This document shows positions 4,301 through 60,885 of a stretch of DNA of 64,000 nt, piece after piece. The notes beneath the pieces were generated by a model, which worked only from the letters and a program-made list of their open reading frames with translations, was not told the origin of the DNA and searched no databases. This DNA is from Methanosarcinales archaeon (GTDB taxonomy: Archaea > Halobacteriota > Methanosarcinia > Methanosarcinales > Methanocomedenaceae): NCBI GenBank assembly GCA_021108405.1, contig JAIOQW010000140.1:631-64630 (forward strand), read 5' to 3'. A program made the translations under genes and the position numbers. Numbering within the stretch: position 1 is the first letter of the stretch; the number at the start of each line of letters is the position of its first letter.

Positions 4301-4639
4301 ATTGAATTAATAGCATCTATGATAGAACCGGCAGGCTATGGTATATCACGGGCATACAATGGGCAGGAAGGAATTGATAAAGCAATAAGTGAACATCCTG
4401 ATCTACTGATACTTGATCTTATGATGCCTGTTGTAAACGGATTTGATGTGATTAAAAAATTAAAAAATACTGATGATACAAAAAATATACCAATTATCAT
4501 CTGTACTGCAAAAGACCTGACAAAAGCCGAATTACAAATGCTTACGCAAAACGTGATATCAATAATGCAAAAGGGGATGTTTAATACAGATCAATTCCTG
4601 GATGAGATTAACAGAGTTACAAAAAGAAGGAGGAAATAA
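1316..4639 (+). CDS. Hybrid sensor histidine kinase (Cache-like, HAMP, GAF, HisKA, HATPase_c, two receiver domains)
   Basis: N-terminal TM, extracellular Cache-like region, second TM, HAMP (SKPINDLSKGVREIKSGNLDYQL), GAF, H-box SEFLANMSHELRTPLNSI. ATPase boxes LLSNAIKF, DTGIGI, GTGLGLA. Two REC domains (ILVVEDD...LDIMLPGLDGW; VLVVDDEPD...LDLMMPVVNGF). Confidence 0.9.
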   Translation: MKISIRIFMVFFIFILISSIVTFFISSTTSKNITEEQIYNNLNSNVESRTFHIKTILENYKEITETMAVGNSFKDAVDESKDYTQRIEQVNRRINNTIQKNNEILVFVILDKNGTVIASNMAVVGRDDSASIMFLEGKEHTFINDITICKICGEPVIGVSSPIVVNGEFAGVCSIYYWATVELYDIITGTTGLKQTGEIYLVNKDGFMISPSRFVNDTVLKQQINIEHEYEHSFNSNELFVTKNYLDEKVFRVHTHILEMEWYVIAEMSEEEALAPVAQLNNAIFSFTFALIIIGLVISIIISRSISKPINDLSKGVREIKSGNLDYQLNITTGDEIELFANEFNDMSDKLKRSYSGLELKVEERTKEITDANNTLKAEIEKHTAIENKLKSKQVMDAAYSKILTISNKTIDIDTLLDQGLTNLMKYTDSPLGAVYMFDPQRNILVPKITKGTMNSVSDREFLMGDGIPGDAAQRKTMIVVTDIPEDTVFRMESGLCESLPTTIVSIPMIFKDMLLGVIITCHTGNITQDKLDFIQRVVDQFAVSVNNANSYTQMQVMAVQMKNQRDELEIQSNQLEAANKTKSEFLANMSHELRTPLNSIIGFSEVLHDQTFGPVNDKQLKYINNVLISGKHLLQLINDILDLSKVEAGKVELIYEDFELLRAIDEVKTLIISIASKKNISIEINIEPQLTTLHADIGKIKQILFNLLSNAIKFSSEHSVVTVDVVRIEDMAQISVTDTGIGISKEDQKKLFKTFVQIDAAASRQYEGTGLGLALVRQFAQLHGGSAWVESESGKGSTFIFTIPIAGKKNIEDTDKNTKNENETKDSVTVHQPKTTSTIEKIKNITMPDIFSPEDGTGDEPLILVVEDDTNSNELLTNTLTGAGYRTISAYTGTQAVAIAQKMQPFAITLDIMLPGLDGWDVMKCLKSDPLTRNIPVIVISMIDEKECAYSYGITDYFTKPVDKDILLSTLNDLTNGLNIESPKVLVVDDEPDVIELIASMIEPAGYGISRAYNGQEGIDKAISEHPDLLILDLMMPVVNGFDVIKKLKNTDDTKNIPIIICTAKDLTKAELQMLTQNVISIMQKGMFNTDQFLDEINRVTKRRRK

Positions 4640-4644
4640 GGAAA

Positions 4645-6531: not shown

Positions 6532-7167
6532 TTATGTTTTTTTTAAGGCATCTGCTATTCTTTCAGGAAGAGTATCGAGTTTTTCACTTATATCATCAAG
6601 TACACCTAATTTATTATCCATCCCACCTAGCTTATCATTCATTCCACCAAGCTTATCTTCTATTCTGTCAGGTGCACCCAATTTATCATTCATTCCACCA
6701 AGCTTATCATCCATTCTATCAAGTGCACCTAATTTATCATTCATTCCATCAAGCTTATCATCCATTCTATCAAGTGCACCTAATTTATCATTCATCCCAC
6801 TGAGTATATGAATAATCTCATGAAATAATGATGAATGTTCTGTTAATATCCCAATACCTTTATCGAACCGTTTCATATACTCCCGTATATCTTCAGTCGC
6901 AATCCTGCCGAAAGGAGATGGTAATGTAATATCTTCTTCGATCACTGTAGTTTCTATTGTAATATGCCTATGGGATGTTAGATCATTAATAAAACCTGAA
7001 ATAGATATTTCCGGGCCGCTTGCCATAATCTTGACAGAACCATCAATATCATTAAAAACAAATCCATCTAAACCATTAGCTCTTCCATAAGTTTCTACTA
7101 TATCCCTATATCCTACCATTTGAATATTATTTCTTATGGATAAAAAGATGTTTTTTATATTTGTCAT
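6532..7167 (-). CDS. Acylphosphatase-like domain protein with C-terminal DKLG-type tandem repeats
   Basis: The N-terminal ~90 aa (VGYRDIVETYGRANGLDGFVFNDIDGSVKIMASGP) is acylphosphatase-like. The C-terminal half is GMNDKLGALDRMDDKLD repeated, with a 17-aa period. Confidence 0.55.
   Translation of the reverse strand: MTNIKNIFLSIRNNIQMVGYRDIVETYGRANGLDGFVFNDIDGSVKIMASGPEISISGFINDLTSHRHITIETTVIEEDITLPSPFGRIATEDIREYMKRFDKGIGILTEHSSLFHEIIHILSGMNDKLGALDRMDDKLDGMNDKLGALDRMDDKLGGMNDKLGAPDRIEDKLGGMNDKLGGMDNKLGVLDDISEKLDTLPERIADALKKT
6598..6800 (-). repeat. In-frame tandem repeat: 51-bp (17-codon) unit, about 2.6 near-identical copies plus diverged units
   Basis: Units at 6669-6719 and 6720-6770 differ at a few positions. 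A third copy starts at 6771. More diverged 24-27 bp sub-units run from 6598 to 6668. Confidence 0.85.
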
Positions 7168-7428
7168 GTAATATTCATTTTATATTGTAAGTATATAGTT
7201 TTATTGTATACTTGCTAAGACTTTTTTTCTAAGCCATATTGCTATAACCTCTTGAAAATATTCAATGGGTAATAGGTGTTTCACCGGAAGGAGAATATGG
7301 CAAATTTTCAAGCAGCTATTTTGAAGTATTTCGACATCACCGTTTAAACTATGAAAGGTGCAACCAATGATTTAATTATTACAATTTAACTTTGTCAATA
7401 ATAACATTATCCAATCCGGTGCCCCAGG

Positions 7429-8130
7429 TTAACGCGAATGAAATGAGCGTTTACCACACATAACAATCAACTCATTAATACATGCCACCGCCACCGGCGT
7501 ACCCCCCCGTGTCCCTGTACAGGTAATAGATGGAATATCCAGTCCTCTCACTTTCTGTTTAGATTCGGCAGCGTTCACAAACCCGACAGGAACAGCTATT
7601 ATAAGAGCCGGTTTGATACCATATTCTACTATACGCGATATGGTAATAGCAGCAGAAGGTGCATTTCCTATAACCACAACAGCATCCTGAAGATCCTGGG
7701 CTGCGCTTAGAAATCCTGCCGATGTTCTGGTAATACCACAATCATGGGCAAGTTGTGTGGCACCACTGAGATCAAGTACACATTGTATCTTACAATCATG
7801 TCCTGTTTTGATAATACCTGTAAGCACCATCCTGATATCAGTAAACACAGGTATACCAGTAGATATTGCACGCAGTCCGGCTTCGATCGGATCATTACAA
7901 AACACTAACAGGTCTTTAAATGCCGGATCTCCGGTAGCCACCACACAGCGTTGCCGTATTTTATCCTCGGGACTGTTATCTCCGACGATCTTCCTGGCAA
8001 TTTCACGTCCTGCTTCGGCAATGGTCATAGCCTCAGGAGTTATAGCTCCGGGTTCACTGCATATGCGGACCAGTTCAGGGTCAATTTCTTTAGTATGATG
8101 TGCAGCCGCACTCAATAGATCAGTAGTCAT
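7429..8130 (-). CDS. cbiC: Cobalt-precorrin-8 methylmutase
   Basis: VVIGNAPSAAITISRIVE and overall CbiC/CobH-like sequence. It is the last gene of the cbi operon. The ORF opens at 8187, but the Met at 8130 leaves only an 11-nt overlap with cbiH. Confidence 0.8.
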   Translation of the reverse strand: MTTDLLSAAAHHTKEIDPELVRICSEPGAITPEAMTIAEAGREIARKIVGDNSPEDKIRQRCVVATGDPAFKDLLVFCNDPIEAGLRAISTGIPVFTDIRMVLTGIIKTGHDCKIQCVLDLSGATQLAHDCGITRTSAGFLSAAQDLQDAVVVIGNAPSAAITISRIVEYGIKPALIIAVPVGFVNAAESKQKVRGLDIPSITCTGTRGGTPVAVACINELIVMCGKRSFHSR

Positions 8131-8899
8131 ATTTCTTATGATACCCCCTTGGTGTGATGATCCTTGAACCCCATATCCCTGATTCACTATTGCCTATGAT
8201 TATTGTAGTTCTCATATCTACTTCATCATCATGGTCGAGAATATTTCCCAAAGTGGTCACAGTCACTGACTCACCTTCTGTGCGTAATGCATTTCTGACT
8301 ATTCCTACAGGCACGGTATCTACCCTGCTGCGGCGGATTATCTTTATGGCTTTTTGGAAATTAGTATTACGTTGCCTGCTTTTTGGGTTATAGATACCAA
8401 TGATCATATCTGCCTCTGCAGCAGCATGCAGGCGTTTCTCAATAACTTCCCATGGCGTGAGCAGGTCACTTAAGCTGATCACTGCAAAATCCGTAACAAC
8501 AGGAGCACCAAGCAGACTTGCTGCTGCACTTAAAGCTGTTATACCTGGTACGATCTCAATATCCACACTAAGATCAACCTGTCTTGCAACTTCCAGTACC
8601 AGACCTGCCATGCCATAGATATTCGAATCCCCGCCGCTGACCATTACTACCTTATTATCCACAGCAAGATCAATAGCCTTCTTAGCTCTTTCCACTTCAT
8701 GACCCATACTTGAGCGAAACACCTGTTGTGTAGATACCAGGTCTTTGATCTGGTCAAGATAAGTACCGTTACCGAGAATAATATCTGCTTCTTTGATCAC
8801 TGTATGCGCTCTTAAGGTCATGTGTTCCAAAGAACCGGGTCCGATCCCTACTACATAGAGTTTTCCATTAACGTGCGATGGCGATTGTGACATTATCAT
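8120..8899 (-). CDS. cbiH: Cobalt-factor III / cobalt-precorrin-3 C17-methyltransferase
   Basis: Tetrapyrrole methylase motifs LYVVGIGPGSLEHMTLRA and SGGDSNIYGMAGL. Operon context. Confidence 0.85.
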   Translation of the reverse strand: MIMSQSPSHVNGKLYVVGIGPGSLEHMTLRAHTVIKEADIILGNGTYLDQIKDLVSTQQVFRSSMGHEVERAKKAIDLAVDNKVVMVSGGDSNIYGMAGLVLEVARQVDLSVDIEIVPGITALSAAASLLGAPVVTDFAVISLSDLLTPWEVIEKRLHAAAEADMIIGIYNPKSRQRNTNFQKAIKIIRRSRVDTVPVGIVRNALRTEGESVTVTTLGNILDHDDEVDMRTTIIIGNSESGIWGSRIITPRGYHKKYDY

Positions 8900-12457: not shown

Positions 12458-12470
12458 GGTTTATAAATAA

Positions 12471-12537
12471 GAACAAAATCCTCCCTCTGGTCGGATTTTC
12501 TTGAGTATATATCCCTATAGATTATATACTATAAAAA
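12471..12537 (+). repeat. Hairpin mosaic element, modules A-H
   Basis: GAACAAAATCCTCCCTCTGGTCGGATTTTCTTGA followed by AGTATATA-11 nt-TATATACT and an A-run. It starts 14 nt after the nfeD stop. Confidence 0.85.
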
Positions 12538-14743: not shown

Positions 14744-14837
14744 TTGTTTAGCTCTATTTACTTGACAGGAAGAAGAAGAATAATCAGAATTTTGAAGCCG
14801 CAGAGTGAACTATGAACTTTGGTTCGTAGATAAAGGA

Positions 14838-14859
14838 GAACAAAATCCTCCTTCTGGTC
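14838..14859 (+). repeat. Left half of module A only
   Basis: GAACAAAATCCTCCTTCTGGTC matches the first 22 nt of module A. The sequence then diverges, with no GGATTTTCTTGA arm. Confidence 0.6.
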
Positions 14860-15702
14860 CTGGCCCTGTCGATGTATTCAGGATAGCTTCTGCCTGGCCC
14901 GGGACTTTTTTAATGAAATGCAGGGTAATTAATAGAATATTGACCTGTTGCCGTCTCTACAAGAATGGAAAAACCTGTACAAAGCAGCGCTTGGGTTCAA
15001 GGAACTGGCTTCTTGGAACTGGATGCACGACAGCGACATTTTCGGGGTTAAAGACCCGGTAAGCGGTGAAATAGGATACTACTGCATCATGGGCGCTGTA
15101 GGTGAGCACTATGCTCTTGGGCTATATTTAGGCTCACAGGGATTGTGTGGGCTATCGAGTATACTCCCCAGCCCGGATGTTCCCGATCGCTTCCATAGTC
15201 CATGCATCAAGTTCAATATTATGGCTAGCAGCCAATTTTCGCAGTTCTCCTGCTGCTATTTCCAGATATTCCTCATCGGTCTGGTCCCCCATCTCTTCAC
15301 GCTTATTCAATGACTCTTGTATAGAAAGGTGGGTAAACACTTTTTGTACCTCATAAGAATGCATCCTATGAGTCGATGTCAGGACAATACATTGGCACAG
15401 GGCCTCAATGCGGGGCGACTATATAGTAGGTGCGCTGTAAGCCTTACCCACATGGCTCACCATTTCCTCGGAAGACACCTGTGCCAGATGATACTTGGAT
15501 TCCAAACCACTTTAATCTGACGTTTTACTTCACTGATATGACTATAATCTGCCAGTCATATCCAGTCCGGGATTCTCCTCCATCCTTCAATGGCCATGGA
15601 TTTGGGATTTACCCGCTTAACCTTATACCACGATTCCCGGTATTTGATCAGATATCCTGGCTTAACATCCTTAGGAGCGATCTTCAAACCGAGCTAAACA
15701 AA
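14860..15702. other. Degraded region with broken ORFs on both strands
   Basis: The plus-strand ORF 14948-15145 looks protein-like (SLQEWKNLYKAALGFKELASWNWMHDSDIFGVKDPVSGEIGYYCIMGAVGEHYALGLYLG) and then degenerates. A protein-like minus-strand ORF runs 15152-15364, and further minus-frame fragments follow to 15700. Confidence 0.3.
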
Positions 15703-15772
15703 GAACAAAATCCTCCCTTCGGTCGGATTTTCTTGAGTATATTATCTTACAGATTATATACTATAAAAAAAA
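15703..15772 (+). repeat. Hairpin mosaic element, modules A-H
   Basis: GAACAAAATCCTCCCTTCGGTCGGATTTTCTTGA + AGTATAT...ATATACT + A9. Confidence 0.85.
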
Positions 15773-21419: not shown

Positions 21420-22101
21420 ATTGAGTGAGACTATTTTTCAGCTTATTAAACTACCTGATTTAGTGACCCTGATAAATGCACTGCTTGGTTTTTCTGCAAT
21501 TCTAATGGTGATCCAGTCTCCATCCAATGTCAATCATGCCTCTATCCTTATCTTATTAGCTGTAATGAGTGATGGATTAGACGGTCTGGTCGCCAGATCA
21601 ATGGAATCAGGTAAGCTTGGGGAATCTCTTGATTCACTGGCTGATACAATATCTTTTGGAGTAGCTCCATGTGCCATGGTATATGCCATACTGGCACCTC
21701 AGTTCCATTATTATGCCTGTTTTGTTGGAGGGGTATTTTTAGCATGTAGTATACTCAGACTGGCAAGGTTCAGTGCAATACCTGTAAAAAAAGGATTTAT
21801 GGGTATTCCGATAACAACTTCCGGTCTGATCGTAGTTCTATATATACTGGCCTTCTATGATGAAAGTTCTCCACTTTATTCCATTGTTCTATTAGGTATC
21901 ATGTTTGTCCTGGCTATGTTAATGATCAGCAATATACCATATCCGAAGATACAGGATACCAGGATTCTTGGTTTGGTTGCTTTTTTAATAATTGTGATTA
22001 TGCTGTTATTCTATCTGGACTATCAAGCCGGACTTGATATAATTGCTAAAGCTTGCTTTGTATTGATGGGATTATATGTCTTTAGTCCATTTTTCAAGTA
22101 A
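21406..22101 (+). CDS. pssA: CDP-alcohol phosphatidyltransferase (archaetidylserine synthase)
   Basis: DGLDGLVARSMESGKLGESLDSLADTISFGVAP matches D-G-x2-A-R-x8-G-x3-D-x3-D. Confidence 0.85.
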   Translation: MQVYELSETIFQLIKLPDLVTLINALLGFSAILMVIQSPSNVNHASILILLAVMSDGLDGLVARSMESGKLGESLDSLADTISFGVAPCAMVYAILAPQFHYYACFVGGVFLACSILRLARFSAIPVKKGFMGIPITTSGLIVVLYILAFYDESSPLYSIVLLGIMFVLAMLMISNIPYPKIQDTRILGLVAFLIIVIMLLFYLDYQAGLDIIAKACFVLMGLYVFSPFFK

Positions 22102-22124
22102 CTGCTCACTTCGTTCGCAGTTAC
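22098..22124 (-). repeat. Hairpin GTAACTGC-[TCACTTCGTTC]-GCAGTTAC carrying the conserved 11-nt loop in reverse orientation
   Basis: 8-bp perfect stem. The loop is the reverse complement of GAACGAAGTGA. It overlaps the pssA stop codon and sits at the truncation point of the next gene. Confidence 0.8.
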
Positions 22125-22708
22125 TTAAGGCTATCAAGCAGAAATACGATTTACCGGATAACTTTATTCTTTCTGTTGCAAAACCATTCCAGGGTGATAG
22201 ATTGTTACCAAGGAAAAACATTGATAATATCGTGAGATCATTCCTTGCATTTGAGGATAATTCAAAAACATTAAAACTCGTATTAGCAGATAATCGCTGT
22301 TATGAGTATATCACAGAGGTATTTGGGAAAGAATTGGCAAATGATCCTAGATTTGTCTATCCTGGTTGGATTTCTCATGAAGATATGCCCTATATATATA
22401 GTCTTGCAAAATTACTTATGATGCCATCATACTCTGAAAGTTTCGGTCTTCCATTGGTGGAAGCAATGGCATGTGGCTGTCCCGTAATCACTTCAACAAC
22501 AAGTTGTTGTCCTGAAATTGTAGGGGATGCAGCTATTGTTGTTGACCCTACTGATGTTAAGGGGCTGACCTTTGCTATAAGTAGTATATTAACTGATCAA
22601 GAACTTTCCAAAAGATTCACTGAAAAAGGAATAAAAAAAGCAAGTGAATATAGCTGGTCTAATAGTGCTAAAAAAGTAATAAGAATTTTCGGCACTGTCC
22701 TGGAATAG
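22124..22708 (+). pseudogene. 5'-truncated GT4-family glycosyltransferase (C-terminal Rossmann domain only)
   Basis: The E-x7-E region ESFGLPLVEAMACGCPVI and the typical GT4 C-terminus are present. The N-terminal ~170-aa domain is absent, and the reading frame runs straight out of pssA and the hairpin. Confidence 0.6.
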
Positions 22709-22972: not shown

Positions 22973-23209
22973 TTTTTATAGTATATCAAATATAACTTGA
23001 TATATCGAAAATGCTTCGCATTTTCTAATCCTCCATTCCTCCAGAATGTCGGTCAATAAAATCCGAGCGGTAGCGAGGATTTTGTTCCAGTATATATTTC
23101 ATAAAAATATATCTCAAGTAAATGCGAACGAAGTGAGCATTTTTTTGTAGTATATCAAGTATAACTTGATGTACTCAAGAAAATCCGAGCGGTAGCGAGG
23201 ATTTTGTTC
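22973..23209 (-). repeat. Two adjacent mosaic elements in reverse orientation (F-Eshort-B-A, then extra hairpins-Elong-F-A)
   Basis: TAGTATATCAAATATAACTTGATATA; GAAAATGC-TTC-GCATTTTC; CTCCATTCCTCCAGAATGTCGG; AAAATCCGAGCGGTAGCGAGGATTTTGTTC occurs twice (ending at 23087 and 23209). Confidence 0.85.
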
Positions 23210-23319
23210 CAATAAAAGTAAAAGAAGGTTGAAGATACGGGATATACATATTCACCAGCATCAAGGCAAGCATTGATATCAATTCAAAGATTTTTTTCGC
23301 TTTTTCCAGGGGTTAATAC

Positions 23320-30615: not shown

Positions 30616-30704
30616 TGCTATATCCTCCTTACTTATAATTTCAATAAAACTCTTAATTCTCTTATAGTTTTATAATTGAATCTATTTAAAACTTATGAAT
30701 AAAA

Positions 30705-30762
30705 AACACAATCCTCCATTCAGTCGGATTTTACTGAGTATATCAAGTTATACCTGATATAT
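30705..30762 (+). repeat. Hairpin mosaic element, diverged A plus F
   Basis: AACACAATCCTCCATTCAGTCGGATTTTACTGA + GTATATCAAGTTATACCTGATATA. It lies between the ubiA-type gene and the histone gene. Confidence 0.7.
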
Positions 30763-30787
30763 TAAAATAAAGGTATAATCATAGCAA

Positions 30788-33354: not shown

Positions 33355-33400
33355 TTGCTCCTTGAATTGCTCTTTAAGTATATATTATTGACTGTGAGGA

Positions 33401-33435
33401 GAACAAAATCCTCCCTCCGGTCGGATTTTCTTGAC
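33401..33435 (+). repeat. Module A alone, directly upstream of the IS91-like transposase gene
   Basis: GAACAAAATCCTCCCTCCGGTCGGATTTTCTTGA. Next comes a CATTTTCT/AGAAAATG hairpin (about 33455-33488) whose arms match the module E stem. Confidence 0.85.
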
Positions 33436-33495
33436 GTATAGGAATTTATAAACACATTTTCTTATCCTGCTACTGAAATAGAAAATGTTGAAAGA

Positions 33496-34365
33496 ATGAG
33501 GTTTTGTAGAAAGCCTCAAAATGGATATAAAGTATATAAGTGTCCGAAATGTGAAACAAAGAAGTACGTATCTTTCACTTGTAAGACTCGTCTATGTACA
33601 TCATGTGGAACAAAATCGGCTAATGAATTTGCAGATAAAATTTATCATAGACTTCTAAGAGTCCCACACAGGCATGTTGTTTTTACTATTCCTGACAGGT
33701 TAAGGGAGACTTTCAAGATTTCTGATCATCAGAAAATTCTCTTTGAGGCAGCAAAAGTAACAATGGGAGATATGATCCAGTTTTCAAATAAAAAAAGCAA
33801 GAGAAAAATAAAGTTGAAAATTGGCATGATTCAGTTTCTGCAAACATTTGGTGCAGATATGAAATATAATCATCATATTCATAGCATTGTTACTGAAGGT
33901 GGTTTTGATAGAAATGGGAACTGGATTCATGTACATTTTATACACTATAAAGGATGGAGGAAAAAGTGGCAATATGAATTACTGACAAGGCTGAAAAAAG
34001 AAATGCCAAGATGCAAAGAGACAAATAAGTTCATAGACTTGCAATTTAAAAAATATCCAAATGGATTTGTAATTTACGGTAAAAGAAGATTTGAAAAAAG
34101 AGATGGGTGGAATATGGCAAGGTATATTGGTAGATATGTTAAGCATCCACCAATAGCCGAATCAAGAATAAAAGCCTATGATGGAAAACATGTAATATTC
34201 TGGTATAAAGACACTGAAACCAAAAGGAAGATAACTGTAACAATGGATAAAATTGAGTTTGTGCGATTACTGCTAAGTCACATACCAGTAAAATATTTTA
34301 GAACTGTTAGGTACTATGGTGTCTATTCAAGAAGAGGATACAAGCATAGAAATGGTTGTACTTAA
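33496..34365 (+). CDS. IS91-family-like rolling-circle (HUH, Y2) transposase, probably C-terminally truncated or frameshifted
   Basis: Zn-binding N-terminus CPKCETKKYVSFTCKTRLCTSCG. VPHRHVVFTIPDRLR. HUH motif NHHIHSIVTEGGF. RYIGRYVKHPPIAESRI. Tyrosine motif RTVRYYGVYSRR. An open +1 frame continues to about 34470. Confidence 0.75.
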   Translation: MRFCRKPQNGYKVYKCPKCETKKYVSFTCKTRLCTSCGTKSANEFADKIYHRLLRVPHRHVVFTIPDRLRETFKISDHQKILFEAAKVTMGDMIQFSNKKSKRKIKLKIGMIQFLQTFGADMKYNHHIHSIVTEGGFDRNGNWIHVHFIHYKGWRKKWQYELLTRLKKEMPRCKETNKFIDLQFKKYPNGFVIYGKRRFEKRDGWNMARYIGRYVKHPPIAESRIKAYDGKHVIFWYKDTETKRKITVTMDKIEFVRLLLSHIPVKYFRTVRYYGVYSRRGYKHRNGCT

Positions 34366-36643: not shown

Positions 36644-37018
36644 CTATTTTGCAGTCACTATACTATACGGACTTAAGTCCAAGGCCTGTTTATAAACCTC
36701 AGCTTTTAGATTTTCTATCTTGTCCGGCAATATAATTTTCAACAACTTCCCAGCCACTTCGAACACTTCCATAATAACAACTTTGTGCCCGGAGACTTTG
36801 CTTACATCTTTCTTTAAGTTTAAGGAAATTTGTAATATCCTACTACTCCTTCTTTTAATTCTCTTTGTAATAAAGTTTATGGAATAATTTAGAAGAAATT
36901 GAATAAATAGATGTACATGATCTAGATTATTTGCCATATTAATAATCTCAATATTCAAAACCAAGTTAGCAAAGACAGTGCTAATATCATGTTTACTCTC
37001 AACAACAATTTTATAACC
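36644..37018 (-). pseudogene. Decayed IS200/IS605-type TnpA (Y1 HUH transposase) gene
   Basis: YKIVVESKH (cf. YHIVW), HUH motif DHVHLFI, KRRSSRIL (cf. KGxSSR), AEVYKQ (cf. YIxxQ). An in-frame TAG lies 2 codons upstream of the YKIVV block, no proper start exists, and the middle is diverged. Confidence 0.55.
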
Positions 37019-37043: not shown

Positions 37044-37340
37044 AAAATGCTTCGCATATTCTTAACCAAAGCTACAAAGGAGCCAAAGAGAACAAAATCC
37101 TTCCTTCGGTCGGATTTTCTTGACCGACATTCCGGAGGAATGGAGGATTAGAAAATGTGAACGAAGTGAGCATTTTCGATATATCAAGTTATACTTGATA
37201 TACTATAAGAAAACACGAAGTGTTTTTACCCTCCATTCCCACGAAATGTCGGGTGATCATATCGAAGATTCTACGAATCTTCTAATCTTCGGCTCTTTTC
37301 GAGTCTCAGATAAGCAAATCCGAACGAAGTGAGGATTTGC
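37044..37340. repeat. Largest mosaic array: Eshort, A-B-Elong-F forward, then G hairpin, B, C and D-like reversed, and a terminal GCAAATCC-[GAACGAAGTGA]-GGATTTGC hairpin
   Basis: Read directly. A starts at 37090. GAAAATGT-GAACGAAGTGA-GCATTTTC spans 37151-37177. F spans about 37178-37208. AAAACAC-GAA-GTGTTTT. GAAGATTC-TAC-GAATCTTC. The final hairpin spans 37314-37340. The array ends 22 nt before the ferredoxin start. Confidence 0.85.
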
Positions 37341-37362
37341 TTAACGTAAAAACTCTTGTAAG

Positions 37363-42919: not shown

Positions 42920-43705
42920 CTACTGTTGAAAATTTAATATTTTTTTATCCAGTATTTCTGTGACAGGGTTCTTCTGTATGGAAGATGTAAGTATTGCATC
43001 CCATACAAGATCAGAATCTTTTAAATCTGTTATAATAAGGTATTCCGGAGAAGCTGCCTTTTGTAAGATTAAGGCATGCTGCTTTAACACTTTTTCTCCT
43101 ATATCACTTGAAATGATTATTTTTTTATCATTCAATGAACCATATGAAGTTACATAGTCTATTATAACATTCAATCCTGTTATATCTTTTGAGAATATTA
43201 CAATATATTCAATATCTATAGTATCATCCGGAAACGTACCCGGGAAATATTTTGAGTCATAATCAATTCTTTTTTCAAGTACTGGTATCCCAACTGCTGT
43301 GGCATAATTTCCCATTAGTCTTACAAGATTATATTTAACCGAGTTATCATAAATTATCAGCATAGAGCTCATATTAGATTCTTCTGTGCTCTCTGGTTTA
43401 TTATCATCTATATCGCTATCTGATCCGGTGTCATCATCTTCATCACTGTCTACATCATCTGCTTCGCTATCTGATTCACTGTCATCATCTACACCGCTAT
43501 CTGTATCATCATCGTCATCCACATCGCTGTCTGACTCACTGTTATCATCTACATCACTGTCTGGTTCATCGTTGTCATCTCCATCACTATCTGACTCTGC
43601 TTGAGATATTTCTAGGTTTGTTAACGCTAGCAACCCACCAGTCAGAAGAATTGTGATAATCACTAATATGACCCTTATTCTCATATGTTCTAATTCCTTT
43701 TCCAT
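42920..43705 (-). CDS. Signal-anchored protein with ~70-aa Asp/Ser-rich repeat region and C-terminal globular domain
   Basis: N-terminal TM VILVIITILLTGGLLAL, six DSDxDDxxxx-type decamers, then about 150 aa of ordinary sequence. It is the first gene of the three-gene minus-strand cluster. Confidence 0.6.
   Translation of the reverse strand: MEKELEHMRIRVILVIITILLTGGLLALTNLEISQAESDSDGDDNDEPDSDVDDNSESDSDVDDDDDTDSGVDDDSESDSEADDVDSDEDDDTGSDSDIDDNKPESTEESNMSSMLIIYDNSVKYNLVRLMGNYATAVGIPVLEKRIDYDSKYFPGTFPDDTIDIEYIVIFSKDITGLNVIIDYVTSYGSLNDKKIIISSDIGEKVLKQHALILQKAASPEYLIITDLKDSDLVWDAILTSSIQKNPVTEILDKKILNFQQ
43390..43600 (-). repeat. In-frame ~30-bp periodic repeat encoding DSD(V/G/I)DD decamers
   Basis: The protein reads DSDGDDNDEP DSDVDDNSES DSDVDDDDDT DSGVDDDSES DSEADDV... 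DSDIDDNKPE. The shadow ORF on the opposite strand is correspondingly repetitive. Confidence 0.8.
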
Positions 43706-43711
43706 TATTTT

Positions 43712-43876
43712 TAGTATATCAAGTATAACTTGATATATCGAAAATGCTCACTCTGTTCACATTTTCTAATCTTCAGCTCTTTTATGAGCCTCGCTCGAAG
43801 ATTCTATGAATCTTCTAATCCTCCATTCCTCTGGAATGTCGGTCAAGAAAATCCTCCAGACGGGTAGATTTTGTTC
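43712..43876 (-). repeat. Full-length mosaic element in reverse orientation (F-E-D-C-B-A on the plus strand)
   Basis: TAGTATATCAAGTATAACTTGATATA; GAAAATGC-TCACTCTGTTC-ACATTTTC; D-like; GAAGATTC-TAT-GAATCTTC; CTCCATTCCTCTGGAATGTCGG; diverged A ending GATTTTGTTC. Confidence 0.85.
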
Positions 43877-44022
43877 TTATCTAACTTTCTTCACTTTGTT
43901 GTGACTTATTTATCATTATTTATACATTTCGGCTTACACAGTATCTTCAAATAACTTTTTGATATTTCTTCAATCAGCATCAATTTGCGTTTCCTACACG
44001 CTCCTTAAGTCGTTGCAGTCAT

Positions 44023-44041
44023 TCAACTCCGCAGGAGTTGA
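44023..44041. repeat. Isolated triloop hairpin TCAACTCC-GCA-GGAGTTGA
   Basis: 8-bp perfect stem and 3-nt loop, the same design as modules B, C and E. Confidence 0.6.
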
Positions 44042-44106
44042 TTCGATATTAGAATATATACAGCTGATAATTGCTTTTTTATACATATAATGAGTATTTA
44101 TAAGAA

Positions 44107-44619
44107 ATGATCAATCCCAGATCTCGAAGATATAATATTACAGCATATACAATGATTCTTCTAGCAGTGGTACTGTGGGATACATCTCTTGTAGTGGCTC
44201 CTTATTTTGCATATGTTGGCGGAATATACCAGAGCATATCAGATATTATTTATTTTAATTTCCATTTTTTATGTCATCAAATGCCTGAGCGCTCTTTGTT
44301 TATTTTAGGGAACAAAATGCCTGTATGTCTACGTTGTGCTGGTATTTATTTTGGATTTCTGATAGGAACTATCGCATACCCCTTTATCAGGGGCCTTGAA
44401 ACACGAGATATTCCCCATAAGTGGATATTAATTATAGCATTGTTGCCAGTTGGTATTGACGGCCTTACACAGCTTGTGGGACTCAGACAGAGTACTAACG
44501 ACCTGAGAGTAGTTACAGGTACGATCTTGGGTGTGCTATCTGCCTTTTTTATTGTGCCTGCATTTCTTCAGGTGTATGATGAAATGTGTAATTTTTTAAG
44601 AAAAAAATTAAATGACTGA
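44107..44619 (+). CDS. DUF2085-family membrane protein
   Basis: CHQMPERSLFILGNKMPVCLRCAGIYFG signature. 4-5 TM. Confidence 0.7.
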   Translation: MINPRSRRYNITAYTMILLAVVLWDTSLVVAPYFAYVGGIYQSISDIIYFNFHFLCHQMPERSLFILGNKMPVCLRCAGIYFGFLIGTIAYPFIRGLETRDIPHKWILIIALLPVGIDGLTQLVGLRQSTNDLRVVTGTILGVLSAFFIVPAFLQVYDEMCNFLRKKLND

Positions 44620-44700
44620 TCCACACTATTTATATATAAAAAGAGGAATTGATACTAATTTTTCCAAAAAGTATATAAGGAGAGTAACAGTTTATTATCA

Positions 44701-44762
44701 TAGTATATATTCCATAAGATTATATACTTAAGAAAATTCGAGCGTTAGCTAGGATTTTGTTC
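44701..44762 (-). repeat. Mosaic element H-A in reverse orientation
   Basis: TAGTATATATTCCATAAGATTATATACT + TAAGAAAATTCGAGCGTTAGCTAGGATTTTGTTC. Confidence 0.8.
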
Positions 44763-44795
44763 TTCAGATTATCTAATATCTTTAGGAGTATTTTT

Positions 44796-45236
44796 ATGGT
44801 TGATTTTAATAAATTGCAAAAACCTGTTTTAATTTCAGGAATTCCGGCTGGATTAATTTCAGTGATCCCATTTATACATTGTCTATGCTGCGTGTGGCTG
44901 ATACTGTTTGGTTTTCTATCAGCATATTTATTTAAAAAAGATACAGGAACTCTGGAAATCGAAGACGGTGTAATATCCGGAGCTCTAACTGGTTTAGTAG
45001 CATTTGTTATTATGATGATTTTATCTATAATCTTTATATTTTTTAAAGTTGGAATATCCCCTCTAATGGGAGAAGATATGGCAATGCAAGGTATTATGTC
45101 AGGTTTTTCTTTATTATTTATATTATTCACAGGGTTAATACAAATCATCGTATTTCCGATTTTCGGAGCAATTGGCGGAATAATTGGAGCTGTATTGTTG
45201 AAAGATAAAGAACTGAGTGAACAAAATCCTCGCTAA
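44796..45236 (+). CDS. Small polytopic membrane protein of unknown function
   Basis: 4 TM segments. The ATG at 44796 is preferred because the track start at 44757 lies inside the repeat. The last five codons and the stop (EQNPR*) are encoded by module A. Confidence 0.5.
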   Translation: MVDFNKLQKPVLISGIPAGLISVIPFIHCLCCVWLILFGFLSAYLFKKDTGTLEIEDGVISGALTGLVAFVIMMILSIIFIFFKVGISPLMGEDMAMQGIMSGFSLLFILFTGLIQIIVFPIFGAIGGIIGAVLLKDKELSEQNPR

Positions 45237-45502
45237 CGCTCGGATTTTCTTGACTGAAGCTCCGAAGGAGCTGAAGATTAGAAGATTCGTAGAATCTTCA
45301 CCTGAGGCTCTTAAAAGAGCCTAAGATTAGAAAATGTGAACGGAGTGAGCATTTTCGATATATCGAGTTATACCTGATAGAGGCTGTCCAACAATCCAAA
45401 ATCGGAAGAAAAAGAAAGGCAAATAGGGCTGTTAATCCAAAAACAAGTGAAATTTTTGATACCAAAAGCAATTGTGGGACAGCCTCGATATACTATAAAA
45501 AA
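45219..45502 (+). repeat. Full-length mosaic element A-B'-C-D-E-F, with F interrupted by a 107-bp insertion
   Basis: GAACAAAATCCTCGCTAACGCTCGGATTTTCTTGA; GAAGCTCC-GAA-GGAGCT; GAAGATTC-GTA-GAATCTTC; GGCTCTT-AA-AAGAGCC; GAAAATGT-GAACGGAGTGA-GCATTTTC; split F. Confidence 0.9.
45380..45486. mobile_element. Nested 107-bp TIR element inserted in module F, flanked by a GATA direct duplication
   Basis: 10-bp perfect TIRs GAGGCTGTCC / GGACAGCCTC. GATA occurs at 45376-45379 and again at 45487-45490, while intact F copies have a single GATA (ACTTGATATACT). Confidence 0.6.
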
Positions 45503-45611
45503 TTCCCATAAAGTATAAATGTTCGGAAATAATGATCAATGCATTATCTTTATAAAGGGTTACCAGTAAAAAGGTAACCACATAATATTATAATTATTCG
45601 GTGCATCAATC

Positions 45612-46676
45612 ATGTCAAATATTTCCATTAAAACGATAAATAAAAGTCATATAGATGAAGTTGATTTTGATAATCTAGGTTTTGGCGAGGTCTTTTCTGA
45701 TCATATGTTCAGTATGGATTATGAGAACGGGGAATGGATAAACCCGAGGATCGAACCATATGGAAATATTGAATTCGAACCTGCTATGTGCACACTTCAC
45801 TATGCTCAATCAGTCTTTGAAGGTCTGAAAGCCTTCCATGTTAATGATGGGAGTATTAATCTTTTCAGGCCCGAGATGAACCTTGAAAGGATGAACAGAT
45901 CCAACGACAGGATGTGCATTCCGCGTATAGATATTGATATGTTCTTTGATGCTATGACCACTCTCATCAAACTGGAGCGCAACTGGATACCTGATAAAAA
46001 AGGATATTCATTATATATACGGCCCTTTGTTTTCGGGACTGAGAATTTCCTTGGTGTGCATCCTTCAAACACATATCGTTTTATGATCATACTCTCACCG
46101 GTCGGTGCATACTACAAAGAAGGTTTCAATCCTGTTAGTCTGTTAGTACCTGAAGAATATGTCAGGGCTGTTAAAGGCGGAGTTGGTGAGGCAAAAACTT
46201 CAGGTAACTATGCTGCCAGTCTGCTGCCTGCCGAGATAGCACAGAAAAGGGGGTATACCCAGGTATTATGGCTTGATGGTGTAGAGCATAAATATATTGA
46301 TGAAGTAGGTACCATGAATATCTTCTTTGTTATTGATGATGAACTGGTAACACCACCACTGGAAGGTTCAATTTTAGGCGGTATAACCAGGGATTCTACC
46401 ATTCACCTGGCAAGAGACTGGGGTATGAAAGTATATGAGCGGCGCATTTCTATTGATGAGATCATTGAGAGATCAAAAGAGGATAGACTCAAAGGGGCCT
46501 TTGGTACTGGTACTGCAGCTGTCATATCCCCGGTAGGTGAGATCCGGTATAAGGATATTACGCTAAATATAAATGACGGGGAGATAGGTCCTATCGCCAG
46601 AAGATTGTATGATGAGATCACTGGTATACAGTACGGAGAAAAACCTGATAGATACGGGTGGATATACAAGATATAA
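45612..46676 (+). CDS. ilvE: Branched-chain amino acid aminotransferase
   Basis: 354 aa, class IV aminotransferase (YAQSVFEGLKAF, VGEAKTSGNYAASL, GTMNIFFV, GITRDS). Confidence 0.9.
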   Translation: MSNISIKTINKSHIDEVDFDNLGFGEVFSDHMFSMDYENGEWINPRIEPYGNIEFEPAMCTLHYAQSVFEGLKAFHVNDGSINLFRPEMNLERMNRSNDRMCIPRIDIDMFFDAMTTLIKLERNWIPDKKGYSLYIRPFVFGTENFLGVHPSNTYRFMIILSPVGAYYKEGFNPVSLLVPEEYVRAVKGGVGEAKTSGNYAASLLPAEIAQKRGYTQVLWLDGVEHKYIDEVGTMNIFFVIDDELVTPPLEGSILGGITRDSTIHLARDWGMKVYERRISIDEIIERSKEDRLKGAFGTGTAAVISPVGEIRYKDITLNINDGEIGPIARRLYDEITGIQYGEKPDRYGWIYKI

Positions 46677-46835
46677 AAATAAAATCCTCGCTAGCGCTCG
46701 GATTTTATTGACCGACATTCCAGAGAAATGGAGGATTAGAAGATTCGTAGAATCTTCGCCAGAGGCTCTTAAAAGAGCCGAAGAGTAGAAAATGTGAACG
46801 GAGTGAGCATTTTCGATATAGTTGTACTTAATACT
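46676..46835 (+). repeat. Full-length mosaic element A-B-C-D-E-(degenerate F)
   Basis: It starts at the ilvE stop codon and ends at the HNH gene ATG. Modules are as in 45219, except that B (CATTCC-AGA-GAAATG) replaces B'. Confidence 0.9.
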
Positions 46836-47264
46836 ATGAAAAAGACTAATATTAAAAGGACCATACAGTACCGCCGTAAGATCCAGCTTCTTACACAGTT
46901 GTTCAATAAAAGAAAAACTGAGCTATCAGCGGGATATCAGGGGTATCACGAACTTAAAGGGTTTGTGGATGAGTGTGAGCACTGGGGCATAATGGACCGC
47001 GGCCAGGAAAAGGCACTGGATGAGTGGATAGATTTTCTTAACCGCTGGCCTTTTGCAGGAGGAACAACGAAGAGTGCTTTAACACCATACCAGCGAAATA
47101 AGGCGATGGGGAAGCAACAGTTTATATGTACTATGTGCGGCAGGCCTGCAGAAGAGGTGCATCATATAATCCCAAGATCAAAGGGCGGTCGGAATACTTC
47201 TGGTAATCTTACTATATTGTGCAGGGAGTGTCATGAAAAAATTCATAAAAAAAAGAAAAAGTAG
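46836..47264 (+). CDS. Stand-alone HNH endonuclease
   Basis: CTMCGRPAEEVHHIIPRSKGGRNTSGNLTILCRECHEKIH. I did not recognise the N-terminal ~90 aa. The track start at 46794 lies inside the repeat, so the ATG at 46836 is preferred. Confidence 0.75.
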   Translation: MKKTNIKRTIQYRRKIQLLTQLFNKRKTELSAGYQGYHELKGFVDECEHWGIMDRGQEKALDEWIDFLNRWPFAGGTTKSALTPYQRNKAMGKQQFICTMCGRPAEEVHHIIPRSKGGRNTSGNLTILCRECHEKIHKKKKK

Positions 47265-50288: not shown

Positions 50289-50367
50289 TTGAGTGGTCTA
50301 ATTTATTGTTTTTTTATTTTAAGTTATCCTAATTATTTTTTTATAGAATTTCCAATTCCTGCAATAA

Positions 50368-50429
50368 GAACCAAATCCTCCTTCCGGTCGGATTTTCTTA
50401 AGTATATCAAGTTATACTTAATATACTAT
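50368..50429 (+). repeat. Hairpin mosaic element A-F
   Basis: GAACCAAATCCTCCTTCCGGTCGGATTTTCTTAA + GTATATCAAGTTATACTTAATATACT. Confidence 0.8.
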
Positions 50430-51482: not shown

Positions 51483-51545
51483 GTAGTATATCAAGTATAA
51501 CTTGATATACTCAAGAAAATCCGAGCGTTAGCGAGGATTTTGTTC
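51483..51545 (-). repeat. Mosaic element F-A in reverse orientation
   Basis: GTAGTATATCAAGTATAACTTGATATACT + CAAGAAAATCCGAGCGTTAGCGAGGATTTTGTTC. It ends 11 nt before the speB start. Confidence 0.85.
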
Positions 51546-51556
51546 TCAGGATAAAT

Positions 51557-52441
51557 ATGTCTGACAATTTCTTTTTTGCAGATGCTGATTCCAGTTATGA
51601 GGATGCTATTTTCATAATATTCGGTGCACCTTTTGACTATACTTCTACATATAGGAAGGGAAGTCGGTTAGCTCCTGATATTATCAGGGAAGTATCATAT
51701 AGTTTTGAGACCTACAATCCTTTTTTTAATGTGGACCTGTGTAATGTTCCAATGCATGATGCAGGAAATATTGAGATAAGTAATAACTGTACTATTGAGC
51801 AGGCTATAACAGTCGTAGGTAATATGGTCCGTAAGGTTATTGCTCAGGGTAAGATACCGATAATGCTGGGTGGTGAACATTCCCTCACACTTCCATGTAT
51901 AAGAGAAACAAAACTCAGATATCATGACCTTGGTGCAGTAGTACTGGATGCACATCTTGATCTGCTAAATGATTATTCAGGTGAAAGAAACAGTCATGCA
52001 TGTATAAGCCGCCGTATTATTGAGGATGTTACCGATGAGTATGTCTCAATCGGGATACGAAGCGGGAGCCGGGATGAATATTCAACAGCAAAGACTAAGA
52101 ATATAATTTATTATACAGCCGATCAAATATATGATATGGGCTGTGATAATGTCCATACTGAGCTGAGCAGATACTTAAATACCCGGCATTTGTATCTATC
52201 CCTTGATATGGATGTCCTGGATCCTTCTTTTGCTCCTGCACTGGGAACACCTGAACCTTTCGGTCTTACCGACCGTCAGGTACTTTCGTTTATTCGAAAG
52301 CTTGCTCCACGAACAGTAGGTTTTGATGTGGTTGAGATCGCCCCTCAATATGATAGCGGTAATACGGCACTGCTGGGTGCAAAATTTATCAGGGAATTTA
52401 TTGCAGCGGTTTGGGCATATAAAGAACAAAATCCTCGCTAA
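51557..52441 (+). CDS. speB: Agmatinase (arginase family)
   Basis: GGEHSLT, DAHLDL, SLDMDVLDP. The last codons and stop (EQNPR*) come from module A. Confidence 0.9.
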   Translation: MSDNFFFADADSSYEDAIFIIFGAPFDYTSTYRKGSRLAPDIIREVSYSFETYNPFFNVDLCNVPMHDAGNIEISNNCTIEQAITVVGNMVRKVIAQGKIPIMLGGEHSLTLPCIRETKLRYHDLGAVVLDAHLDLLNDYSGERNSHACISRRIIEDVTDEYVSIGIRSGSRDEYSTAKTKNIIYYTADQIYDMGCDNVHTELSRYLNTRHLYLSLDMDVLDPSFAPALGTPEPFGLTDRQVLSFIRKLAPRTVGFDVVEIAPQYDSGNTALLGAKFIREFIAAVWAYKEQNPR

Positions 52442-52455
52442 CACTCTGATTTGAA
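52424..52455 (+). repeat. Module A with degenerate right arm
   Basis: GAACAAAATCCTCGCTAACACTCTGATTTGAAC. The left arm and loop are intact and the right arm is mutated. Confidence 0.65.
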
Positions 52456-56341: not shown

Positions 56342-56361
56342 TTTTCAACTATAAAACTAAA

Positions 56362-56425
56362 GAACAAAATCCTCCCTCTGGTCGGATTTTCTTGACTATA
56401 TATTCTTATAGATTATAATCTACAA
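56362..56425 (+). repeat. Hairpin mosaic element A-H
   Basis: GAACAAAATCCTCCCTCTGGTCGGATTTTCTTGA + CTATATATTCTTATAGATTATAAT. The H part overlaps the stop and last codons of the convergent larE-like gene. Confidence 0.8.
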
Positions 56426-59842: not shown

Positions 59843-60739
59843 ATGGAACTTGAAGGATTACGACATGGAACTGAATTATTAAAACGCGGATTTGCCAGTA
59901 TGCAAAAAGGTGGTGTTGTTATGGATGTCACAACTTCGGATGAGGCACATATTGCAGAAGATGCCGGTGCTGTAGCGGTCATGGCCCTGCATATGGTTCC
60001 TGCTGATATCAGAAAGATCGGTGGTGTGGCACGTATGGCTGACCCACAAATTATTTCGCAGATCATTGATGCTGTTACCATACCGGTTATGGCTAAGGCA
60101 CGTATCGGCCATTTTGTAGAAGCTGATATACTACAATCATTGGGTGTAGACCTGGTAGATGAATCTGAAGTGTTGACCCCTGCAGATGAGAAATATCATA
60201 TTGATAAAAGGAACTTTACCATTCCTTTCATATGCGGAGCCAGGGATCTGGGTGAAGCTCTACGTAGAATTCATGAAGGAGCGGCCATGATACGTACCAA
60301 AGGGGAAGCAGGTACAGGTGATATACGCGAAGCTGTCAGACATATCCGTGTGATCAATGAACAGATAGGTAAGCTTAAAGGGATGAATATACAAGAGATG
60401 GAAAGAGTGGCAAGAGAGATTGAAGCACCTATAGAATTAGTTATAGAGACAGGAGAACGCCAGCGTCTTCCCGTAGTAAACTTTGCTGCCGGCGGGGTTG
60501 CTACACCCGCAGATGCTGCCCTGATGATGAGACTGGGTGCAGATGGTGTTTTTGTAGGTAGCGGTATATTCAAAGCAGAGAATCCGTCCACTATGGCAAG
60601 TGCTATTGTGGATGCAGTCAACAATTTCGATGATGCTAAGGTGCTGGGTGAGATATCCAAGGGTCTGGGAGAACAGATGAAAGGTATAAGCATTGATACC
60701 ATCCCGAAAGAGGAGATATTACAGACCCGAGGATGGTAA
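59843..60739 (+). CDS. pdxS: Pyridoxal 5'-phosphate synthase, lyase subunit
   Basis: [48 protein letters not shown]. Confidence 0.95.
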
Positions 60740-60885
60740 ATAAAATCCTCGCTAGCGCTCGGATTTTCTTGACTGAAGCTTCGAAGAAGCTGAAGATTAG
60801 AAGATTCGTAGAATCTTCGTCTGACATTCCGGAGGAATGGAGGATTAGATAATGTGAACGGGGTGAGCATTTTCGATGTATCAAG
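60740..60885 (+). repeat. Full-length mosaic element A-B'-C-B-E-(degenerate F)
   Basis: It starts 1 nt after the pdxS stop. B' here is GAAGCTTC-GAA-GAAGCT, a compensated variant. The E loop is GAACGGGGTGA. Confidence 0.9.

Follow-up and report, generated by a model that had tools for sequence, protein, structure and literature searches.

We analysed a 64-kb window (64,000 nt of contig JAIOQW010000140.1, from a Methanosarcinales archaeon) that carries a dense family of short hairpin modules, designated A to F, at about 20 loci in all, with copies, fragments and orphan hairpins counted together. We propose that these modules are parts of miniature, non-autonomous IS91-type rolling-circle elements, whose hairpins would be required as single-stranded DNA (ssDNA) structures for propagation. 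On comparison of the sequences we regard this explanation as probable. The elements themselves are demonstrably mobile DNA, and on our best reading the family is restricted to an ANME-2 (anaerobic methanotrophic archaea)/Methanosarcinales lineage.

Anatomy and mobility of the elements

The basic unit is 61-62 nt long and consists of module A, a 6-nt spacer and module F, with the sequence AGAAC...ATATACT. Read in this direction, the modular repeat begins with (A)GAAC-[AAAATCC TC NN loop NN TC GGATTTT]-CTTGA, continues optionally with slot X, GA(A/G)GATTAG and module C (AAGATTC GTA GAATCTT), and closes with E (AAAATGT GA AC GGA GT GA GCATTTT), CGAT, F (TATATCAAGT TAT ACTTGATATACT) and an A-run. 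The strand that folds best reads, from 5' to 3', a T-run target, the F palindrome (AGTATATCAAGTATAACTTGATATACT), CAAG, the A hairpin (AAAATCC GA NN loop NN GA GGATTTT) and GTTC(T). The tetranucleotides on either side of A are exactly GAAC and CTTG. In longer copies, F and A are separated by a variable cargo of extra hairpin modules (B, B', C, D, E). Slot X is occupied by B (CATTCC/GGAATG), B' (AGCTTC/GAAGCT) or D (GGCTCT/AGAGCC), whose stems are distinct yet fully complementary. The inner helices of A and E are CC/GG, GC/GC, AC/GT or AT/AT, and because the complementary strand of A has the architecture that E shows on the first strand, the two are evidently relatives in inverted polarity.

The loops on the GA strand (the strand on which the internal mismatches of A read GA) are of the GNA or GNNA type, among them GAA, GTA, GGA and GCGTTAGC, and variants in the loop do reach several copies, with 24 of GAA, 6 of AGA, 6 of GTTA and 3 of GCTA. 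Its GC-class core corresponds to GCGNNAGC and reads GCGTTAGC, GCGCTAGC, GCGGTAGC or GCGTAGC; a short form of E contains GCGAAGC, and the loops of the other modules are C-GAA-G, C-GGA-G or C-GTA-G. Both GCGNAGC and GCGNNAGC have been described as extraordinarily stable DNA mini-hairpins (PMC13037366; PMC3201870). The GA strand shares its loops and cores with these mini-hairpins and with d(GNA) triloops; they are biophysical motifs rather than genetic elements, and here they form part of a longer stem that has a tandem G·A internal loop.

A composite on the plus strand illustrates the longer form. Its module A (45218-45254) comprises TGAAC, the hairpin AAAATCC TC GC TAAC GC TC GGATTTT (45223-45248) and CTTGAC; on the opposite strand this reads GA GCGTTAGC GA, where tandem G·A mismatches enclose the core, a GCGNNAGC mini-hairpin. 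Slot X then holds a B' variant (45255-45281; TGA, the hairpin AGCTCC GAA GGAGCT at 45258-45272 and the linker GAAGATTAG), followed by the C hairpin AAGATTC GTA GAATCTT (45282-45298) and a slot X occupied by D (45303-45330; TGA, the hairpin GGCTCT TAAA AGAGCC and the linker TAAGATTAG). Module E (45331-45355; AAAATGT GA AC GGA GT GA GCATTTT) has the architecture of A in inverted polarity and one T·G pair. The F palindrome (ATATCGAGTTATACCTGATA...GATATACT; 45360-45494) is split by a nested MITE (miniature inverted-repeat transposable element) of 107 nt with terminal inverted repeats (TIRs) at 45380-45486, and the A-run target starts at 45495.

The arms of A (AAAATCC-N11/12-GGATTTT) had nine matches in the window at no more than two mismatches, against 0.62 expected from shuffles. 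Copies of the GC..GC class lie at 23058, 23180, 45223, 46681, 51516 and 60742, and those of the CC..GG class at 12475, 15707, 33405, 37094 and 56366. The wider architecture of stem, GA, 2 bp, loop, 2 bp, GA and stem occurs 20 times, against an average of 1.3, and never more than 4, in 30 Markov shuffles. Its stems vary among AATCC/GGATT, AATGY/GCATT, AACGC/GCGTT and AACTGC/GCAGTT.

Mobility was established by three independent pairs of filled and empty sites in relatives that are 90-96% identical across the aligned flanks. They give the exact boundaries of a 61-62-nt unit, to within a 1-nt ambiguity, and target duplication is absent. In the window, a simple minus-strand element of 62 nt (51485-51546, F then A on the plus strand) lies between ...TTATTTTTTGT and CAGGATAAATATG, where the relatives L076 and L060 have the empty site ...TTATTTTTTGTCAGGATAAATATG; in the other two pairs L028 is filled and L061 empty, and L046 is filled and L058 empty. 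Across 54 copies, the flank after the F end reads A (87%), T (65%), R, A (89%) and AAAA, which is a T-run on the other strand. The empty sites carry the A-run as well, so the A-run after F is target DNA and the elements insert at T-runs. This conserved flank is found at one end only, both in the 54 copies and in the empty sites, and the T-run ends in NT, or in NA for the full insertion sequence (IS) described below. At the opposite end, GTTC comes straight after the A hairpin, at the boundary of the insertion.

We rejected a TIR-type MITE, as the ends AGAAC... and ...ATATACT are not mutual inverted repeats and the target is not duplicated. A separate, unrelated family of true TIR MITEs, with termini GAGRCTGTC..., includes the window copy inside module F (GAGGCTGTCCAACAAT / ATTGTGGGACAGCCTC), which has GATA on both sides. 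Elsewhere its termini are GAGACTGTCGGAAAAG / CTTTTCCGACAATCTC, with copies in L051 (1457-1640), in L056 (about 8340-8445) and downstream of the IS in L141 and L142; comparison of the filled site in L051 with the empty one in L050 (9880) shows AGTAT duplicated.

Orthologous gene ends show a change in module content and an old insertion. At the 3' end of an aminotransferase gene, the window has A-B-C-D-E-F, and of its close relatives L051 has A-D-C-D-E-F and L050 a truncated version. An A insertion at the 3' end of an arginase-family gene (51557-52441) is old, is common to the window, L076 and L060 and is absent in relatives of about 65% identity, and it gives the gene its last residues and stop codon (...KEQNPR-stop). 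A DUF5518 gene (44757-45236) enters module A in the same frame as the arginase-family gene (45219-45236 and 52424-52441, respectively), and both open reading frames (ORFs) finish ...(K)EQNPR-stop at the TAA of the A loop (45234-45236 for the former). The element has replaced the original C-termini and stop codons of both genes. One composite of L010 (about 4440-4640, minus strand) contains the B'-C pair in a three- to fourfold tandem amplification, with a period of 48 nt.

Pairing between and within subfamilies

A sequence-only reading of the window had claimed that compensatory substitutions preserve the stems of A and B'. This observation is confirmed, and the structural interpretation attached to it is partly supported. 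The C-G pair of GAAGCTCCGAAGGAGCTGAAG at 45258-45272 (AGCTCC-GAA-GGAGCT) is indeed a T-A pair in GAAGCTTCGAAGAAGCTGAAG at 60777-60791 (AGCTTC-GAA-GAAGCT), a copy whose sequence had been given correctly and whose position, 60780-60794, was 3 nt too far. Of about 15 B' copies, just one has AGCTCC/GGAGCT, and variation within subfamilies is mostly one-sided. Both inner-helix classes reported for A, GC..GC and CC..GG, are present, together with a third, AC..GT, which had been overlooked and occurs at 37317 and in all E modules. In the copy at 44733, AAAATTC opposite GGATTTT forms a T·G wobble on the plus strand, as had been described, and the same copy has a second change, GCTAGG.

We then measured covariation in an alignment of 46 distinct A/E-type hairpins and one of 21 distinct slot X sequences, the latter made with MAFFT and padded with N in the 3-nt loops, which keeps the loop gap out of the stem. 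Since the rows represent subfamilies that are related to each other, the alignment cells are not independent events. Standard pairs made up 94.9% in the A/E superfamily, against 81.7% in shuffles, with two-sided change at seven of nine pairs and a covariation score of 0.344 against 0.116. For slot X (B/B'/D), pairing was 96.0% against 74.2%, five of six pairs changed on both sides, and the score was 0.772 against 0.343. None of 500 shuffles reached the observed pairing or covariation score in either set, and slid controls, whose scores were lower too, paired at most 54%; for both A/E and slot X the paired columns covary more than in these controls, which supports structure-preserving variation. 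B' and D differ at three of six pairs, every one compensated, and the AGCTCC/GGAGCT variant is intermediate between them. The hairpins are thus conserved as structures.

The picture is reversed inside subfamilies, where one-sided changes, to a wobble or a mismatch, number roughly 35 and compensated doubles only two, the window B' variant and an A-T inner pair in L031. Module E accounts for about 13-16 of the one-sided changes, the A inner helix and slot X for about 8 each, C for about 5 and the outer stems of window A copies for 4. The sequence-only reading had named, as evidence against selected structures, a lack of significant covariation with stem-disrupting variants as frequent as compensated ones; inside subfamilies the counts do go against it, one-sided damage far outnumbering compensated doubles, and compensation lies almost wholly between subfamilies of multiple copies. 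Because one-sided changes dominate, there is no visible upkeep of the stems in individual inserted copies. All seven module A variants present in at least two copies are intact, whereas 15 of 21 singletons are damaged (Fisher p = 0.0014). Intact stems therefore accompany the ability to multiply rather than upkeep at each locus, and the signal lies at the level of propagation. The view that the hairpins are selected as structures and not merely copied holds for the conserved, covarying structure; the sequences are copied nonetheless, seemingly only when the hairpin is intact. Wobble asymmetry gave no inference of strand, as one-sided G·T and C·A variants are about equal on both strands, the fixed T·G in E excepted.

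Relation to IS91-family transposons and alternatives

The window contains a remnant of an IS91-family IS (33434-34365, plus strand). Its left end, ACGTATAGGAATTTATAAACAC, has 33434 as its first position and directly adjoins the CTTGA of a module A copy (33400-33436, plus strand, CC..GG class). The ORF of the remnant (33496-34365) encodes a truncated Y2 HUH transposase of 289 aa (Zn_Tnp_IS91, 4.8e-18; Y2_Tnp, 3.5e-35), full-length homologues of which have 466-468 aa. Full-length copies of the IS, about 1.5 kb, are found on Methanosarcinales and Methanoperedens contigs (L140-L156, L160), one contig being exactly the IS. The left end, ACGTATAGGAAAGTATAAAC..., always follows a T-run, and the right end is ...GCCCC-loop-GGGGCTTTCTTGA. 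Aligned with MAFFT, the IS left end and its T-run match the F end and T-run of the miniature element, TTTTTTTAACGTATAGGAAAGTATAAAC against TTTTTTGTAGTATATCAA-GTATAAC. The right ends share the layout of hairpin, T-run and CTTG or GTTC, plus TTTCTTGA, and differ in hairpin sequence. The F end with its flank resembles the IS left end, and the other end resembles the family in its layout of palindrome and then GTTC.

IS91-family elements make no target duplication and have a tetranucleotide, CTTG or GTTC, beside oriIS; their terIS is one imperfect subterminal palindrome next to the cleavage site, which is GTTC in IS801 and IS1294, and their intermediates are single-stranded circles (PMC13181058). 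Miniature derivatives of IS801 exist and begin at GAAC (PMC3189936). The elements described here agree with IS91, IS801 and IS1294 in the Y2 HUH transposase of that family in the window and its relatives, the lack of target duplication, a specific flank beside one end, two functionally different ends, the existence of miniature forms, and a single imperfect palindrome directly beside GTTC, with GAAC and CTTG flanking the hairpin. They differ in their archaeal host, a unit of just 61-62 nt, dense copies, modular hairpin cargo, a T-run target, and an AT-rich hairpin with tandem G·A mismatches in place of a GC-rich stem-loop, and an autonomous copy with identical ends was not found. Helitrons also use a 3' hairpin as a termination signal, and in Helraiser, where an exchange of the stem sequence was tested, structure matters more than sequence (PMC4778049). 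Like non-autonomous Helitrons, the elements have a subterminal 3' hairpin a few nucleotides before a short conserved terminus, lack target duplication and insert at A/T-rich sites, and the transposase gene runs from the 5' end to the hairpin. Unlike Helitrons, the enzyme here has IS91-type domains only, without a helicase domain, the termini are not TC...CTRR, and the elements are far smaller.

In the mechanism that we infer, an IS91-family Y2 HUH transposase would act in trans and nick one strand at the F end, beside the T-run; where the cargo modules come from is likewise an inference. Rolling-circle replication would then displace this strand, and the A hairpin would fold in it, stabilised by the tandem G·A mismatches and by the GNA or GCGNNAGC mini-hairpin loop. 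The GA strand of A, which reads T-run, F, A and GTTC, would be the displaced strand. The hairpin would mark the site of termination and cleavage just past GTTC, and the excised strand would enter another T-run without duplicating it. If only copies with intact hairpins multiply, successful subfamilies would differ by compensated pairs, and inserted copies would decay one-sidedly. The alternative of a joined right-end/left-end junction read in the other orientation was set aside, as the three boundaries place F and A with GTTC at the ends of the unit.

Several observations weigh against this explanation. No autonomous element with ends identical to those of the miniature elements was found, the full-length ISs coming from other genomes, and a search of the loci first compared gave no further copy of the Y2 transposase. 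Every retrieved IS has a GCCCC/GGGGC hairpin with CTTGA instead of AAAATCC/GGATTTT with GTTC, so that the right ends are alike in layout rather more than in sequence. Insertion is at a T-run that ends in NT or NA and not at the bacterial CTTG or GTTC. The archaeal transposase gene is directed from the target-flanked end to the hairpin end, and the gene direction of IS91, as read from Fig. 1 of PMC13181058, suggests the opposite. The stable GNA-loop strand of the cargo modules B, B', C, D and E is opposite to that of A, which the model leaves unexplained. The near-palindromic form of F and the presence of both tetranucleotides around A leave the polarity of the unit dependent on the insertion boundaries and on small asymmetries of the loops. 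Finally, most A copies were retrieved by a pattern with fixed outer arms, and variation in the outer stem is therefore under-sampled.

We considered it unlikely that the hairpins are instead selected as RNA, as terminator-like or stabilising stem-loops of untranslated regions or as small RNAs, with mobility as the means by which such cassettes spread. A spread of useful cassettes by mobility has been proposed for the REP/BIME and BOX elements of bacteria. The elements are intergenic and tight against gene ends, several starting within a few nucleotides of a stop codon, a location that T-run targeting explains. A and E form A-tract/hairpin/T4 structures on both strands, whole composites fold with z of about -4.5 on both strands, and the majority T·G pair of E wobbles on one strand only, with T-A and C-G variants that follow the classical RNA covariation path. 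The GA strand folds much better than its complement as RNA (-10.8 vs -6.7, -12.0 vs -7.4 and -8.6 vs -4.0 kcal/mol); it is also the more stable strand as DNA, in support of our main reading (-6.1 vs -4.6, -6.4 vs -4.9 and -4.3 vs -3.6 kcal/mol). Against a role as RNA, orientation to the neighboring genes shows no clear bias (A side, 13 co-directional and 17 opposite; F side, 24 and 13; ORF-based and approximate), the stable strands of A and E are opposite within one element, decay or truncation in place affects many copies (14837, 30703, 43866, 52423), and one-sided damage far exceeds compensated change within subfamilies. Rfam 15 gave no match at gathering score over the whole window, and its matches at E<=10 over 45190-45520 were weak and far below gathering scores (best E = 0.049, Histone3). 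A tRNA scan found none, and bacterial promoter and terminator scans did not flag the modules. We rejected a bacterial intrinsic terminator, as a consensus scan of 43500-47000 flagged no module and the AT-rich stems are followed by T4 only, and, on inspection, a K-turn, a bulge-helix-bulge and a box C/D motif, for want of a 3-nt bulge and of C/D boxes. The sequence-only reading had left RNA and single-stranded DNA side by side; mobile DNA, mixed orientations and a propagation-level signal fit the latter better than a functional RNA, and at some loci a secondary RNA role may exist.

It is less likely still that the elements are IS200/IS605-type miniatures (PATE-like) or REP/REPIN-like sequences mobilised by a Y1 rather than a Y2 HUH enzyme. 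REP sequences are imperfect palindromes recognised as ssDNA by an HUH enzyme (PMC3479197). The absence of target duplication, the one-sided conserved flank, the different subterminal hairpins and the asymmetric imperfect palindrome would all fit, and an IS200-like Y1 transposase fragment (36644-36964, minus strand; Pfam Y1_Tnp, 8e-07) lies beside composite elements, with a short-E-like hairpin, AAAATGCTTCGCATATT, at 37044-37060. However, neither its flanks nor those of its homologues (53-58% identity, a small and distant sample) contain A-like or F-like sequence, it is the Y2 IS whose left end aligns with the F end and the adjoining T-run, and a GTAG-type REP head is absent. The GAAC and CTTG around A are tetranucleotides of the IS91 family (PMC13181058, PMC3189936). 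BIME/REP in E. coli and BOX in Streptococcus pneumoniae resemble the present elements as intergenic mosaics at gene ends, in which the number and order of short hairpin modules vary, but REP requires Y1 RAYT enzymes and the GTAG head. We know of no transposase for BOX and of no sequence similarity between BIME/REP or BOX and the A-F elements. The compensated pairs could also be a mutational by-product, template switching or repair in quasi-palindromes copying one arm to the other in a single step, and to this we give very little weight. In its favor, the A copy of L060 at the arginase-family 3' end (1409-1455) is now a long perfect palindrome, GAACAAAATCCTCGCTA...TAGCGAGGATTTTGTTC (which could reflect arm-to-arm copying or two inverted half-copies), no single-mismatch intermediate was seen among about 15 B' copies, and module content shifts fast at one orthologous site. 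On the other hand, 66 A and 25 E copies, in their intact consensus forms, keep the non-complementary GA/GA (TC/TC) loop without correction, mismatches on one side are frequent and persist, and T·G is the majority state in E; arm-to-arm copying is therefore not pervasive, although it may lie behind individual events such as AGCTCC/GGAGCT.

Copies, distribution and significance

The remaining copies in the window range from intact elements to remnants. Simple A-F elements on the plus strand lie at 12470-12530 and 15702-15762 (both CC..GG class), 30703-30763 (decayed; ACAATCC, inner pair A·A), 50367-50427 (slightly decayed) and 56361-56421 (F2 variant), and the simple element with the AAAATTC wobble lies on the minus strand at 44702-44763. 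Plus-strand composites are found at 46677-46835 (A-B-C-D-E-F with degenerate F, the copy at the aminotransferase 3' end) and at 60738-60885, where A, B' (60777-60791), C, B, E and a degenerate F start right after the stop codon of a SOR/SNZ-family ORF (59843-60739). At 37089-37345 (plus strand) two composites abut, A-B-E-F (37089-37204) and then an inverted partial composite ending in the hybrid hairpin AAATCC GA AC GAA GT GA GGATTT (37313-37338). Two composites are on the minus strand, at 22980-23088 (plus-strand order F, short E AAAATGCTTCGCATTTT, the complement of GCGAAGC, B as a CATTCT variant, and A) and at 43713-43877 (plus-strand order F-E-D-C-B-A, with a variant D and a diverged A). 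The minus-strand locus 23113-23210 combines an E-type hairpin (TAAATGC GA AC GAA GT GA GCATTT) and its T-run with a simple F-A element (23149-23210). Also present on the plus strand are the decayed A-only remnant fused to the arginase-family gene (52423-52452), a truncated A fragment (14837-14859) and an orphan hairpin of the same architecture with another stem (7427-7455; AACGC GA AT GAA AT GA GCGTT); a second orphan, with a 9-bp stem (AGTAACTGC GA AC GAA GT GA GCAGTTACT), lies on the minus strand at 22097-22125.

A small HNH endonuclease gene (46794-47264) adjoins the composite at 46677-46835 downstream, in a position conserved in L050 and L051, and its likely ATG falls within the junction of F end and target (ACTATGAAAAAG). 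Other genes of the window, which derives from a metagenomic contig of an archaeon (ENA ERZ26872896 NODE_91), include those for an aldehyde:ferredoxin oxidoreductase and the replication factor C large subunit. In-frame tandem repeats occur inside minus-strand ORFs, at 6564-6809 (51/30/21-nt periods) and at 43404-43600 (30-nt period), the latter rich in GAT/GAC/AGT on the minus strand, which suggests an acidic repeat protein (ORF 42920-43705).

A collection-wide scan that left 11-12 interior bases free found the element in several ANME-2/Methanosarcinales metagenome-assembled genomes, HR1 foremost, with a few chance matches in bacteria. Related proteins carry the labels Methanosarcinales, ANME-2 cluster or Candidatus Methanocomedens. 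In 917 kb of unrelated loci there were no module copies except one A match in L076, a close relative of the window, and scans of viral contigs for F and for A were both empty. Perfect copies also lie on contigs filed as bacterial, L016, L026, L032, L038, L042 and L045 (JAIWAT01, 'Anaerolineales bacterium SFP3_US_05_5') and L024 (MAXM01, 'Desulfobacterales bacterium C00003106'). A gene of L016 is 68% identical to one in the window. The Anaerolineales and Desulfobacterales contigs are probably mis-binned ANME-2 DNA. ANME-2 relatives without the A-F family carry other GC-rich hairpin repeats (e.g. GGAGCCCGAAGGGCTGCATACGTGTGCAGCCCGCTACTGGC; L054, 9530-9640; L058, 9500-9640), which sit upstream of the aminotransferase gene and have a C-GAA-G loop too. 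We found no description of the A-F family in the literature on MITEs of ANME or Methanosarcinales or on IS91 in archaea.

Our model expects an autonomous partner, in which a Y2 gene would be bounded by a T-run followed by AGTATATC... and, at the other end, by an A hairpin and GTTC. The series of compensated and damaged hairpins would be a compact natural set for testing what a Y2 HUH transposase reads at termination. Strong covariation can come from selection on the propagation of DNA and is not, by itself, evidence of structured RNA. ANME-2 archaea are uncultured and ecologically important, and an abundant repeat family of this kind fragments their assemblies and probably causes mis-binning. 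If the proposed explanation is true, the known range of IS91-type rolling-circle transposition, along with that of its miniature derivatives, would grow to include Archaea. We tentatively suggest that these could be the first miniature rolling-circle (IS91/Helitron-like) transposons recognised in that domain, with a 61-nt unit, a termination hairpin built on a DNA mini-hairpin (GCGNNAGC or C-GNA-G) and a tandem G·A internal loop, cargo that reshuffles at orthologous sites, the capacity to rewrite gene ends and, possibly, RNA structures at 3' ends.

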